Assembly: GCA_963675055.2 (NCBI GenBank)
Contig: CAXXJE010000002.1
Span: forward strand, 456,483-480,482
DNA length: 24,000 nucleotides
Direction of reading: 5' to 3'
DNA from: Melioribacteraceae bacterium
GTDB taxonomy: Bacteria; Bacteroidota; Ignavibacteria; Ignavibacteriales; Melioribacteraceae
Position 1 is the first letter of the stretch. Every line of letters begins with the position of its first letter. Position numbers and translations under genes: made by a program. The notes under the pieces were generated by a model, which worked only from the letters and a program-made list of their open reading frames with translations, was not told the DNA's origin and searched no databases. Below, piece by piece: positions 14,090 through 16,930 of the stretch.

Positions 14090-14097
14090 TATTTTTG
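14090..14097 (+). promoter_or_regulatory. Possible -7/-10 promoter box for the reb-like operon
   Basis: tatttttg matches TAnnTTTG. It lies 22 nt upstream of the ATG at 14119, at the end of a 260-bp AT-rich gene-free region. Weak, motif-only call. Confidence 0.25.
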
Positions 14098-14118
14098 TCA
14101 AACCTAATGGAGGTCATT

Positions 14119-14343
14119 ATGGCATATCCAACACCGGTTAATGATCAGATAACCGATTCTGTAACTCAATCGAATGTGCAGGTTCTCGCCAGTTCTCCTG
14201 CAATGGCATTGGGATCGCTGTACCAGGGAATAAGCAATTCTCAGGGACTGGCAACACAAAATGCTTCCTCTAATCAACAAAACATTAGTACAATTTCCTC
14301 GTCGGTTACATCAGCCTGTGTAGATGTTTTGCTTAGCGAGTAA
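14119..14343 (+). CDS. rebB: RebB-family (R-body / killing-trait) small protein, paralog 1
   Basis: 74 aa from the ATG at 14119 (GGAGG 6 nt upstream). The track's TTG at 14095 is unlikely. Sequence: MAYPTPVNDQITDSVTQSNVQVLASSPAMALGSLYQ...LATQNASSNQQN...SVTSACVDVLL. By hand alignment, 46/74 residues are identical to paralog 2. The VNxQITDSVTQ...APA...QNAxxNQQ pattern is the RebB signature as I recall it. Confidence 0.75.
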   Translation: MAYPTPVNDQITDSVTQSNVQVLASSPAMALGSLYQGISNSQGLATQNASSNQQNISTISSSVTSACVDVLLSE

Positions 14344-14380
14344 ATTTCATTTTTAACTAATTATAACAAGGAGAAATATC

Positions 14381-14623
14381 ATGGCATTACCAACCGCAGT
14401 AAACGGACAAATAACTGATTCCGTAACTCAATCGAATGTTGAAGTCCTGGCAAGTGCACCGGCAAAAGCAATGGGTGACTTGTATATGGCAACAAGCAAT
14501 GCTCTTTCACTGGCAGCACAAAATGCAACATCAAACCAGCAGAATGTAAATACACTAACAGAAGCAGTAACAACCAAATGTGTGAAGTTCCTGCTTGGTA
14601 CTGATATAACTAAATCAAAGTAA
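14381..14623 (+). CDS. rebB: RebB-family (R-body) small protein, paralog 2
   Basis: 80 aa with an AAGGAG box. Sequence: MALPTAVNGQITDSVTQSNVEVLASAPAKAMGDLYMATSNALSLAAQNATSNQQNVNTLTEAVTTKCVKFLL. It shares an identical 17-nt block (gtaactcaatcgaatgt) with paralog 1. Confidence 0.78.
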   Translation: MALPTAVNGQITDSVTQSNVEVLASAPAKAMGDLYMATSNALSLAAQNATSNQQNVNTLTEAVTTKCVKFLLGTDITKSK

Positions 14624-14650
14624 AGAGCAATCATTTAAAAAGGAGTTAAT

Positions 14651-14875
14651 ATGGCTTTTCCAACAGCTGTAAACAGTCAGATAACCGACGCAGTAACTCA
14701 GACAAGCGTTGAAGTACTTGCGGACAGTCCTGCGACAGCTGCTGCTATGCTGATGCAGACAATGGCTGAATCATTAGGGTTGGCAATTCAAAACGCAGTT
14801 GCTAATCAGCAGAACATGAATAGTATAAGCTCGGCAGTTACAACAAAATGTGTTGAAACACTGCTAAGCAAATAA
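14651..14875 (+). CDS. rebB: RebB-family (R-body) small protein, paralog 3
   Basis: 74 aa with an AAGGAG box. Sequence: MAFPTAVNSQITDAVTQTSVEVLADSPATAAAMLMQTMAESLGLAIQNAVANQQNMNSISSAVTTKCVETLLSK. Confidence 0.78.
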   Translation: MAFPTAVNSQITDAVTQTSVEVLADSPATAAAMLMQTMAESLGLAIQNAVANQQNMNSISSAVTTKCVETLLSK

Positions 14876-14907
14876 ACTAAACTGAGAAAAAATATTCCGA
14901 GGAAAAT

Positions 14908-15345
14908 ATGCCGGAAAAAACGAGCATTAATGATCAAATTGCCGATTCGGTAGCCAGTCTGCAAAAAATGCTGCTTGAAAACAAAGAGGGTAACATGCAG
15001 GCATTGTCCTATCAGATAATGGCTCATGCAGCGGGACTCGCCATGTTGAATGCAGTAAACCAGCAGCAGCAGATGTACATACTGCAAAACGCCGTTACAA
15101 CAGCGACAGCAAAAGCTGCTCTGGAATCAAAGCCCGAAGAAGCTGTTAGTATTTTAAAAGACCTTATGAATGAAAACGATTTATTACAGACATTTTCAGG
15201 ACTTAAAAGCTTCATGGACGATTTAAATAAAACCTACCAGGATATAATAAACAAGAAACCGGAAAGCTCTGAAGTGAAAAAGAATACAACAGCCTCTTCA
15301 GAATCCCGAAGTAAGCGTAAGACGGGAGGTAAATCCGGGAAATAA
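14908..15345 (+). CDS. Divergent RebB-like protein with a C-terminal extension and Lys/Ser-rich tail, paralog 4
   Basis: 145 aa. The first ~74 aa (MPEKTSINDQIADSVASL...IMAHAAGLAMLNAVNQQQQMYILQNAVTTATAKAAL) align gap-free with paralog 3 at 26/74 identities. They are followed by a ~70-aa extension ending KKPESSEVKKNTTASSESRSKRKTGGKSGK. Confidence 0.65.
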   Translation: MPEKTSINDQIADSVASLQKMLLENKEGNMQALSYQIMAHAAGLAMLNAVNQQQQMYILQNAVTTATAKAALESKPEEAVSILKDLMNENDLLQTFSGLKSFMDDLNKTYQDIINKKPESSEVKKNTTASSESRSKRKTGGKSGK

Positions 15346-15361
15346 ATAAAGGAAGAAAAAA

Positions 15362-15619
15362 ATGACTGTCTCCGGAAATAGTTCAAAGAAAAAAGGCGGT
15401 GCAGCCAGAGGATCACAGAAGAAGATTAAATCTTCAGCCGCAACAAAGCCAAAAGCCGTGAAAGATAAAGAACCGAATACAAAACCAGTAGATTTCAAAG
15501 ATTTGGAAGAACACCGCAAAAATATTCATGCGGCAGCAAAGGAAGCCCAGAACGCTGTAAAAAAAGCTCTGGAAGGTATGTCCGATCTGACAAAATATGA
15601 AGAAAAGTATGAAGAGTAG
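15362..15619 (+). CDS. Small Lys-rich protein of unknown function (disordered basic N-terminus, helical acidic C-terminus)
   Basis: 85 aa, beginning 16 nt after paralog 4, with an AAGGAA box. I recognise no family. Coding status rests on operon position and the spacing of the ribosome-binding site. Confidence 0.5.
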   Translation: MTVSGNSSKKKGGAARGSQKKIKSSAATKPKAVKDKEPNTKPVDFKDLEEHRKNIHAAAKEAQNAVKKALEGMSDLTKYEEKYEE

Positions 15620-15674
15620 ATATTGACTTGCTTGGGCGTCAATAAAATTTGAATTAGACACAAGGAGGTTTAAT

Positions 15675-16826
15675 ATGAAGCATTCCATTACGCTTCGCAA
15701 CAGACACGGAGGCGGTGAATATAAACAGGCATTGAATGAAACTGAAATGCCTGATATTCCTTCTATTGACTGGGATAAAATCGGAAGAAAGAGACCCGAG
15801 TGGGTATCTGACAAACAGTGGGACTCGGATAAAAACGAAACCAATGTAGATATCGTGATAATAACCTGGACTTCAGCAGAATGGGCATCATTTAACCATG
15901 TATTCTGTGACAGTGGTGCAGACATGCCGTACAAATATTACGAAGCAGAGAAGGAATGGCGTGAGTACTGGAAATATTACCATAACAACTGGGATAAGAT
16001 TAAGTCCGAGCTTACCGACAAGTCCCCGTCATTATCACACGAGGCTTGGGGAAGCTGTAGGGTAGTAAAACTTCCATCGAATGATAAAAATGTTCTGCTG
16101 TTCAAATCAGATATGCATGTAAGTACCGACGGAAAGGATCTTCCGTTAAGAAGTATGCTTCAGCAGATTATTGATGATTTTAACCCTCGGTTTATTTTCA
16201 CGATTGGCACAGCAGGCGGTTCACGTATTGAAGACAACCTGGGTACAGTTAATGTAACAAATTGCGCGCATTTCGATTTGACAGGTGAGTTTACCGGTTG
16301 TCACTACCCTTTCAATAATAAAACTTACTGTAATTCATGGGAACCGGTTAAAGAATTGTTTGACAAAATAAGCAGTTCACTCATGGAGACTCCGGTAACA
16401 AAACATGATCTGGAAATGCTCAGGAACAAAAATGCGGAAAAACTTATTGACCCGGAAACCGGCAAGACATATGAACTAAGCAAGCTGGCAAACAGTCAAA
16501 TTGAACCGGGCAAAATACCACCAATAATGAATGTACTTGATAACACACCCGTGCTTACAACCAACGGATACGTTGTTGGAAATACCAGCGGTAATTATAA
16601 AGATTATGCTGCAATGGAAATGGATGATGCTGTAATCGGTTTAATCGCTGATAAGAATTCGATACTATTCGGTATTGTCAGAAACATATCCGATCCGGTT
16701 CAAAACGCTTCGCTGGCATCTGAAGTGCAGGGTCAATGGGGAGGAATAATTTACAGTGAGTACGGGCTGTATACCAGTTACAACGGCGCCCTGGTAACAT
16801 GGGCCTTAGTGGACGCAATGAAATAG
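15675..16826 (+). CDS. Nucleoside phosphorylase / nucleosidase-superfamily (PNP_UDP_1-like) protein with an N-terminal extension
   Basis: 383 aa with a strong AAGGAGG box. Motif order matches the MTAN/PNP fold: VDIVIITWTSAEW (beta1), FIFTIGTAGGS (Gly-rich loop), GTVNVTNCAHFD, PVLTTNGYVVGN, AAMEMDDAVIGLIA and FGIVRNISDP (RxISD-type end). No signal peptide. Confidence 0.6.
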   Translation: MKHSITLRNRHGGGEYKQALNETEMPDIPSIDWDKIGRKRPEWVSDKQWDSDKNETNVDIVIITWTSAEWASFNHVFCDSGADMPYKYYEAEKEWREYWKYYHNNWDKIKSELTDKSPSLSHEAWGSCRVVKLPSNDKNVLLFKSDMHVSTDGKDLPLRSMLQQIIDDFNPRFIFTIGTAGGSRIEDNLGTVNVTNCAHFDLTGEFTGCHYPFNNKTYCNSWEPVKELFDKISSSLMETPVTKHDLEMLRNKNAEKLIDPETGKTYELSKLANSQIEPGKIPPIMNVLDNTPVLTTNGYVVGNTSGNYKDYAAMEMDDAVIGLIADKNSILFGIVRNISDPVQNASLASEVQGQWGGIIYSEYGLYTSYNGALVTWALVDAMK

Positions 16827-16883
16827 TATTATCAGTGTCTATTCAATGGCTATGATCGATTTCCAACCAGAAAATCTTATCAA

Positions 16884-16930
16884 ATATCCGGGCTGAACAA
16901 TGAAATTAATTCAGTCCGGATATTTCTCAC
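16884..16930 (+). terminator. Hairpin terminator candidate ending the reb-like operon
   Basis: atatccgggctgaa (16884-16897) pairs with ttcagtccggatat (16910-16923). The stem is 14 bp with one G-T pair, the loop is 12 nt, and ttctcac follows. The U-tract is weak. Confidence 0.4.

Follow-up and report, generated by a model that had tools for sequence, protein, structure and literature searches.

RESULTS

Genes and features of the reb locus

Few protein machines are known to store mechanical energy; R-bodies, which do, extend about 50-fold in response to a pH cue and are of interest in grazing resistance, in virulence and as bio-actuators. To our knowledge, all R-bodies that have been studied experimentally are proteobacterial. 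Here, we analysed a 24,000-nucleotide (nt) stretch of DNA from a Melioribacteraceae bacterium (GenBank assembly GCA_963675055.2, contig CAXXJE010000002.1, positions 456,483 to 480,482 of the forward strand), hereafter called the window, which carries a tandem array of four genes of the RebB family of R-body proteins. A sequence-only reading of the window had described six open reading frames (ORFs) on the plus strand as one compact R-body-type operon, and all six were found again with exactly matching coordinates. The genes and the two features that flank them are as follows.

13859..14118, plus strand: upstream intergenic region, putative promoter/operator of the reb operon (sequence blocks conserved with a sister genome, locus L003)
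14119..14343, plus strand: Reb1, short RebB-family subunit of 74 amino acids (aa) (PF11747, 74.8 bits)
14381..14623, plus strand: Reb2, short RebB-family subunit, 80 aa (PF11747, 93.0 bits)
14651..14875, plus strand: Reb3, short RebB-family subunit, 74 aa (PF11747, 85.2 bits)
14908..15345, plus strand: Reb4, long divergent Reb, 145 aa (PF11747, 32.6 bits, and hhalign)
15362..15619, plus strand: gene 5, small reb-associated protein, 85 aa (jackhmmer and locus neighbourhoods)
15675..16826, plus strand: gene 6, MTA/SAH-nucleosidase (MTAN)/PNP-fold enzyme, 383 aa (family profile and AlphaFold2/Foldseek)
16882..16925, plus strand: stem-loop 3' of gene 6, possible terminator (16-bp perfect stem)

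The spacers between the six consecutive ORFs are 37, 27, 32, 16 and 55 nt long, and a box of the GGAGG/AAGGAG type lies 5' of each of the six start codons; the spacing of 27 to 37 nt and the individual boxes that had been noted for the four reb genes were thus found as described. These four paralogs are packed into 1.23 kb and form one tandem array, where a reb gene cluster is expected to have three or more. The start of Reb1 was placed at the ATG at 14119 rather than at the TTG at 14095, a choice supported by the GGAGG box and by the way the N terminus aligns with those of the paralogs. Neither a terminator scan nor folding revealed a terminator-like structure within 14119-15674. The GC content of the cluster matches that of its surroundings (about 40% in the window).

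Four RebB-family proteins, one of them long and divergent

The sequence-only reading had assigned the four proteins to the RebB family and had named the lack of any match to a hidden Markov model as grounds for giving up the assignment. Indeed, all four scored above the curated gathering cutoff of the Pfam model (PF11747; 24 bits), with E-values of 6e-21, 1e-26, 3e-24 and 8e-8 for Reb1 to Reb4, whereas no NCBIfam model matched them. The hand-counted identities were reproduced exactly and without gaps: Reb1 and Reb2 are identical in 46 of 74 residues and Reb3 and Reb4 in 26 of 74. The description of the cores as rich in S, T, N, Q and A and poor in charged residues was also borne out, with 37 to 42 S/T/N/Q/A residues per 74-aa core in the four proteins and 4 to 7 charged residues in Reb1-3 (10 in Reb4); the cores of Reb1-3 are likewise poor in aromatic residues (1 to 2) and in cysteine (1).

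When compared by BLASTP with RebA, RebB and RebD of Caedibacter taeniospiralis plasmid pKAP298 over a core of about 66 residues, a check that had been proposed along with the family assignment, Reb1-3 were 41 to 48% identical to these proteins (Reb1, 42 to 45%; Reb2, 43 to 46%; Reb3, 41 to 48%), with E-values from 1e-13 to 3e-18, and Reb4 was 30 to 41% identical. pKAP298 was also matched by tblastn. Among plasmid records, the short Rebs closest to Reb2 were those of Ralstonia syzygii (60%) and Azospirillum (57%). The motifs regarded as diagnostic of Reb proteins are (D)QITD flanked by prolines, followed by NAV and QQ(Q) in domain 3 (PMC13430693). QITD, P4 and P27, NA[STV] and NQQN are all present in Reb1-3; Reb4 has QIAD and NAVNQQQQ without the prolines, whose absence has also been described for divergent Reb groups. 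A solved structure of a Reb homolog was not found in the PDB. Taken together, these data show that all four proteins, the three short paralogs and the long divergent one alike, are true members of the RebB family.

In Reb4, the Reb core is followed by a conserved, probably helical extension (about residues 70-115) and by a basic tail rich in K, S and T (residues 117-145). Alignment of its profile with that of the short Rebs by hhalign gave a probability of 98.5% and an E-value of 1.7e-15, which identifies it as a divergent Reb. An AlphaFold2 monomer model was all-helical by DSSP, at low confidence (mean pLDDT 54). The extension, with the pattern LESxPEEAV...GLKxFMDDL, is shared by a subfamily of 39 proteins, and in every locus that we found via Reb4, the gene of the Reb4-type protein comes last among the Reb genes.

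Gene 5 is a conserved partner of the array

Gene 5 encodes a basic, probably disordered N terminus followed by a conserved helix with the pattern A-x-x-A-V-x-x-A-[LV]-x-G-M. This single helix is the conserved core of the family; the lysine-rich N terminus is lineage specific. The protein has no family match in Pfam, NCBIfam, PADLOC or PHROG. Nevertheless, a jackhmmer search started from gene 5 over the ORFs of the collected loci (1068, later 1786) retrieved only small ORFs next to reb genes, and a small ORF of 47 to 144 aa adjoins the array in nearly all Reb4-type loci. A profile search of 5.8 billion proteins yielded 17 family members, none of them annotated and none from Pseudomonas. Two of these, P0163 and P0165, were found by the profile only, and their genes directly adjoin reb arrays with a long Reb, which therefore confirms the linkage of gene 5 to reb genes independently. 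Since an exhaustive phmmer search with gene 5 found 3 representatives among 1.84 billion proteins, the family appears to be narrow and fast evolving. In two acidobacterial loci the gene 5 homolog lies directly upstream of the array, not downstream. These results show that gene 5 is a conserved partner of arrays made up of short Rebs and a long Reb, and the modest new detail that they add is a family of conserved, unannotated, reb-linked small proteins.

Since an AQNAV-containing helix in gene 5 hinted at a degenerate Reb, this candidate was considered as well; it found no support, as hhalign against the short and long Reb profiles gave a probability below 1%, a comparison that has little statistical power with a core of about 25 aa.

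The tail of Reb4 (residues 117-145) and the N terminus of gene 5 (residues 1-45) resemble each other in being basic, rich in K, S and T and predicted to be disordered. The flavobacterial and acidobacterial proteins have lost these two regions or carry other sequence in their place.

The conserved unit comprises five genes

Loci found via Reb4 in metagenomes and in GTDB species representatives contain 1 to 3 short Rebs and, after them, a long Reb of the Reb4 type (119 to 157 aa). The layout of short Rebs, long Reb and small gene 5 homolog recurs across taxa, in more than 15 independent loci, and the flanking genes differ wholly from one locus to the next. Neighbourhood comparison of the homologues therefore gives a conserved unit of five genes (14119-15619, about 1.5 kb) instead of the six that had been proposed. 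The idea that the array continues into two novel accessory genes is thus supported only in part: it holds for gene 5, which is a conserved partner, but gene 6 encodes a protein of the MTAN/PNP fold whose homologs occur without reb neighbours (see below).

Related clusters were found in Melioribacteraceae, Flavobacteriaceae, Acidobacteriota and a few Proteobacteria. The nearest named carriers are three metagenome-assembled genomes (MAGs) of Melioribacteraceae (Reb4 identity, 52 to 61%); further carriers are a MAG labelled Amylibacter, Pseudotenacibaculum, Polaribacter, an Acidobacteria MAG and a Bryobacteraceae MAG, and a Methylococcaceae MAG protein retrieved in the Reb4 search is annotated as "RebB family R body protein." In tetranucleotide composition, the window most resembles loci L006 and L003, with the Melioribacteraceae loci next; this similarity and the nearest named carriers point to a probable host in Melioribacteraceae or Ignavibacteria. 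The non-proteobacterial setting suggested by the sequence-only reading was thus confirmed, in agreement with the nearest named relatives of the cluster and with the chemotaxis genes, the GH97 gene and the GC content of the window. The claim to an uncharacterised system was overstated, since reb clusters have already been catalogued in Bacteroidota, Acidobacteriota, Cyanobacteria and other phyla (PMC13430693) and in Kordia algicida (PMC3583457). A survey of 2013 had found Reb homologs in Proteobacteria and K. algicida only (PMC3583457), whereas a survey of 2026 lists Bacteroidota, Cyanobacteria, Acidobacteriota and single taxa of several other phyla, documents extensive and frequent horizontal transfer of reb clusters and deliberately leaves aside co-localised non-Reb hypothetical proteins (PMC13430693). 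The distribution of the present cluster fits the horizontal spread described there for reb genes. The main text of that survey mentions neither Ignavibacteria nor Melioribacter (PMC13430693), and the top-ranked results of a full-text literature search contained no link between Ignavibacteria and R-bodies. The cluster is, then, a known protein machine in a lineage without an earlier report of it.

Selection was assessed by comparing the window with the sister locus L003. Synonymous divergence (pS) was saturated at 0.67 to 0.92, whereas nonsynonymous divergence (pN) lay between 0.08 and 0.15 in the Rebs and gene 6 and was 0.26 in gene 5. The dN/dS ratio was about 0.05 for Reb2-4 (Reb2, 0.05; Reb3, 0.06), compared with 0.19 for gene 5. 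The low pN at saturated pS indicates that all six genes are functional and under purifying selection.

Comparison with known reb clusters

Like the rebABCD genes of the type-51 R-body of C. taeniospiralis (plasmids pKAP298/pKAP47), the window cluster combines tandem RebB paralogs with one small non-Reb protein, and its Rebs share the QITD and NAV/QQ motifs. Unlike them, it has no homolog of RebC, a protein specific to Caedibacter (PMC3583457), and gene 5, its accessory protein, is of an unrelated family; its short Rebs lack the C-terminal domains (about 30 aa) of RebA and RebB, whereas it has a long divergent Reb with a different, conserved extension. It is also chromosomal and lies in a genome of the free-living type with che genes. 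As a side observation, the pKAP298 record (L018) has no intact 56-aa rebC ORF between rebB and rebD (3195-3478), where there are only ORFs of 25 to 33 aa.

The cluster of Pseudomonas aeruginosa PA14 (rebP1P2, rebD, rapA, PA14_27675, rcgA and fecI2) is likewise chromosomal, belongs to a free-living host and encodes non-Reb R-body-associated proteins (PMC8322103), but the window cluster is adjoined by no regulator of the RcgA or sigma factor type. Accessory proteins or regulators of the RebC, RcgA/FecI2 or PraR type were not found in the window cluster; these are lineage specific and not strictly defining.

In Azospirillum and R. syzygii, an array of short Rebs also ends in a long divergent Reb, whose core is 29 to 33% identical to that of Reb4, and short Rebs followed by a long divergent Reb are therefore a general layout. 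The C-terminal extension of these long Rebs is, however, unrelated to that of Reb4, homologs of gene 5 and gene 6 are lacking, and the ORF after the long Reb of Azospirillum encodes another Reb-like protein. The subtype to which the window cluster belongs is thus defined by the Reb4-type extension together with the gene 5 family. The clusters of Flavobacteriaceae and Acidobacteriota (Polaribacter, Pseudotenacibaculum and Bryobacteraceae MAGs) are of the same subtype, with a Reb4-type long Reb and a gene 5-family protein; they differ in having 2 to 3 short Rebs and a long Reb of 119 to 123 aa without the basic tail, and the acidobacterial ones have gene 5 upstream of the array and without the lysine-rich N terminus.

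Gene 6 is best regarded as a neighbouring enzyme

The family profile of gene 6 matched solved MTANs with an E-value of 2e-7, and active-site motifs coincide in this alignment: GTAGG of gene 6 with GSAGG of MTAN, and EMDDA...RNISDP with EMEAA...RAISD. An alignment-based AlphaFold2 model (pLDDT 88.6, pTM 0.90) matched MTAN/PNP structures of the PDB in a Foldseek search with an E-value of 8e-12 and a target-normalised TM score of up to 0.68. Gene 6 thus shares with MtnN/Pfs and the PNP_UDP_1 superfamily the fold and the GxAGG and E-M-[ED]...R-x-I-S-D motifs; its identity to MTAN is about 12 to 14%, and it has about 150 extra residues as insertions. Against the Pfam model PF01048 (PNP_UDP_1) it reached 12.1 bits, below the cutoff of 25.1, but several of its homologs do carry a precomputed PF01048 match. 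No PADLOC match was obtained. The family, of uncharacterised MTAN/PNP-fold proteins with invariant GTAGG, MDDA and RN-SDP motifs, numbers at least 676 proteins and is taxonomically broad, with representatives in Fluviicola, Longimicrobium, Pyrinomonadaceae, Marinicella and a Curvibacter symbiont; it showed no consistent gene neighbourhood in the loci checked. At least one member (P0120) carries a twin-arginine translocation signal.

A homolog with 77% identity lies in an identical six-gene block in the sister genome (L003/L004), with the same flanks as in the window: an ExoIII-like gene and a thioesterase gene upstream and a beta-lactamase-TPR gene downstream. In contrast, the homologs with 66, 63 and 47% identity (loci L001, L002 and L005) have no reb genes nearby, and all other reb loci examined lack a gene 6 homolog. 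A role of gene 6 as a conserved reb partner was therefore ruled out, since the adjacency is kept in the sister genome only. A 361-aa ORF that follows the reb array of Azospirillum was also considered as a gene 6 homolog and rejected. Gene 6 is best regarded as a neighbouring MTAN-fold enzyme that is not part of the R-body machinery. The spacer between gene 5 and gene 6 is poorly conserved and gene 6 has a strong ribosome-binding site of its own; it is a co-oriented neighbour that is possibly co-transcribed by read-through.

DISCUSSION

Possible function of the cluster and competing explanations

In our judgement, 14119-15619 is probably a five-gene reb operon of a subtype common to Melioribacteraceae, some Flavobacteriaceae and Acidobacteriota, for which R-body behaviour is expected by homology. 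Most likely, its products would form a coiled polymer of Rebs inside the cell, and this polymer would extend at low pH. By analogy with the type-51 R-body of Caedibacter and that of PA14, Reb1-3 would copolymerise in the cytoplasm to an alpha-helical lamellar ribbon that is rolled into a coil, and Reb4 may be incorporated as a minor or scaffolding subunit. In Caedibacter, roll formation depends on RebC, a helical assembly factor that does not itself become incorporated (bioRxiv 10.64898/2026.05.21.725848), and in PA14, RapA and PA14_27675 copurify with R-bodies (PMC8322103). From its position and size, gene 5 may be an analogue of RebC, RapA or PA14_27675 and would then act like RebC as an assembly factor or like RapA as an R-body-associated protein that decorates the ribbon. 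Upon acidification, for example in the food vacuole of a protist, the roll would extend to a long tube and rupture the bacterium and the surrounding membrane, an extension that would act against grazers or hosts.

Several points weigh against this picture. An R-body has not been observed in Ignavibacteria or in any carrier of this subtype, and the polymer, its pH trigger and its ecological role are predicted by homology. One Melioribacter locus (L012) has no gene 5, so gene 5 is possibly dispensable. No regulator recognisable by Pfam lies within about 3 kb of the cluster, and none of the kind known from reb loci adjoins it. The main caveat concerns the three short Rebs, the subunits of the abundant type: all are the size of RebD (74 to 80 aa), whereas the major structural subunits of Caedibacter and PA14 exceed RebD in length (PMC8322103), and in type 51, RebC and RebD alone give rolls that do not extend (bioRxiv 10.64898/2026.05.21.725848). 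With only RebD-sized subunits and a divergent long Reb at hand, the Rebs of the window might therefore form a static inclusion or scaffold, or serve another role, and so be homologous to R-body proteins without behaving like them; according to the authors of the 2026 survey, physical R-bodies are in fact unconfirmed in most taxa that carry reb genes (PMC13430693). Nevertheless, the cores of Reb1-3 are 41 to 48% identical to those of functional Rebs and include all diagnostic motifs, and several paralogs have been retained under strong purifying selection, as in working systems. We therefore consider a non-extending assembly unlikely.

A remnant of horizontal transfer that is decaying and functionless would be in line with the frequent transfer of reb clusters (PMC13430693) and with an insertion sequence (IS) element 4.5 kb away. 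Every ORF is, however, intact and preceded by a ribosome-binding site, the dN/dS ratios are about 0.05 to 0.19 with saturated synonymous sites against the sister genome, and the GC content is like that of the surroundings, which makes decay hardly credible. A six-gene system, as first proposed, would make gene 6 a functional component, either a toxin or other payload set free when the R-body extends or an enzyme modifying the Rebs. Gene 6 is co-oriented and starts 55 nt 3' of gene 5 with no predicted terminator in between, its arrangement with the reb genes is kept in the sister genome (L003/L004), and we know of no toxin that has ever been identified in R-body killing. However, the sister genome shares the entire neighbourhood, so that the adjacency there reflects mere shared ancestry; no reb genes adjoin the homologs at 66, 63 and 47% identity, the other reb loci have no gene 6 homolog, the family is large and taxonomically broad, the spacer to gene 5 is unconserved and gene 6 has its own strong ribosome-binding site. 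An integral role of gene 6 is thus quite improbable. A bolder version combines several of these elements: a distinct R-body lineage would have spread horizontally among Bacteroidota, including Ignavibacteria, and Acidobacteriota with its own assembly factor (gene 5) and a specialised long subunit, and gene 6 would have been captured in this genus as a co-transcribed payload that is released on rupture. We regard this as very unlikely; if it were true, the captured gene 6 payload would be a candidate for the long-sought R-body toxin.

The five-gene cluster does not change the concept of reb clusters. At about 1.5 kb, it is a minimal construct for asking whether non-proteobacterial reb clusters make R-bodies, and it offers a naturally divergent set of subunits, three of RebD size and one long, together with gene 5 as a new candidate assembly factor. 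If an R-body is indeed formed, defence against grazing by protists would be suggested as a trait of Melioribacteraceae in sediments and bioreactors.

Flanking elements and the rest of the window

The 260-nt region upstream of the array (13859-14118) contains long blocks conserved with L003, e.g., 13921-13960, 14012-14036 and 14054-14071, and these blocks persist although the synonymous sites of the window and L003 are saturated. They are not conserved in loci more distant than L003. A riboswitch or other known RNA was considered and discarded, as no Rfam match was obtained at the gathering threshold or at an E-value of 1 or lower. In the simplest reading of the sequence, the region may be a lineage-specific promoter or operator.

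The hairpin that had been reported 3' of gene 6 is real: it has a 16-bp perfect stem, a folding energy of -21.7 kcal/mol and a z score of -6.2 compared to shuffled sequences. Since it has no U-tract, was not called by the terminator scan and is not conserved in L003, it is unconvincing as a canonical intrinsic terminator.

As had been noted, no phage, plasmid or regulator gene lies directly adjacent to the reb block. A function in antiphage defence or an origin from a phage was considered for the block and is unsupported, with no PADLOC match and phrog_32040 as the sole PHROG match. This Reb-like family of unknown function is matched by Reb2 (E-value, 2e-15) and Reb4 (2e-8), which means that some phages or prophages encode Reb-like proteins.

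The mobile element closest to the reb cluster lies 4.5 kb upstream of it: an insertion of the IS256/Mutator family that splits an EamA transporter gene (7724-10006); the transposase gene is located at 8271-9494 on the minus strand, and terminal inverted repeats of 23 nt lie at 8232-8254 and 9566-9588. The N-terminal half of EamA corresponds to 7724-8251, and the C-terminal half lies inside the ORF at 9440-10006, with a weak EamA match (E-value, 0.008).

Downstream of the reb block, a GH97 glycosidase is encoded at 18462-20405. It is missing at the syntenic position of the sister genome (L003, 8785-8821), where the beta-lactamase-TPR gene is directly followed by a DUF1569 gene. At the other end of the window (206-4697), a chemotaxis set of CheA, CheY and MCP is encoded on the minus strand, which supports a motile lifestyle of the source organism.

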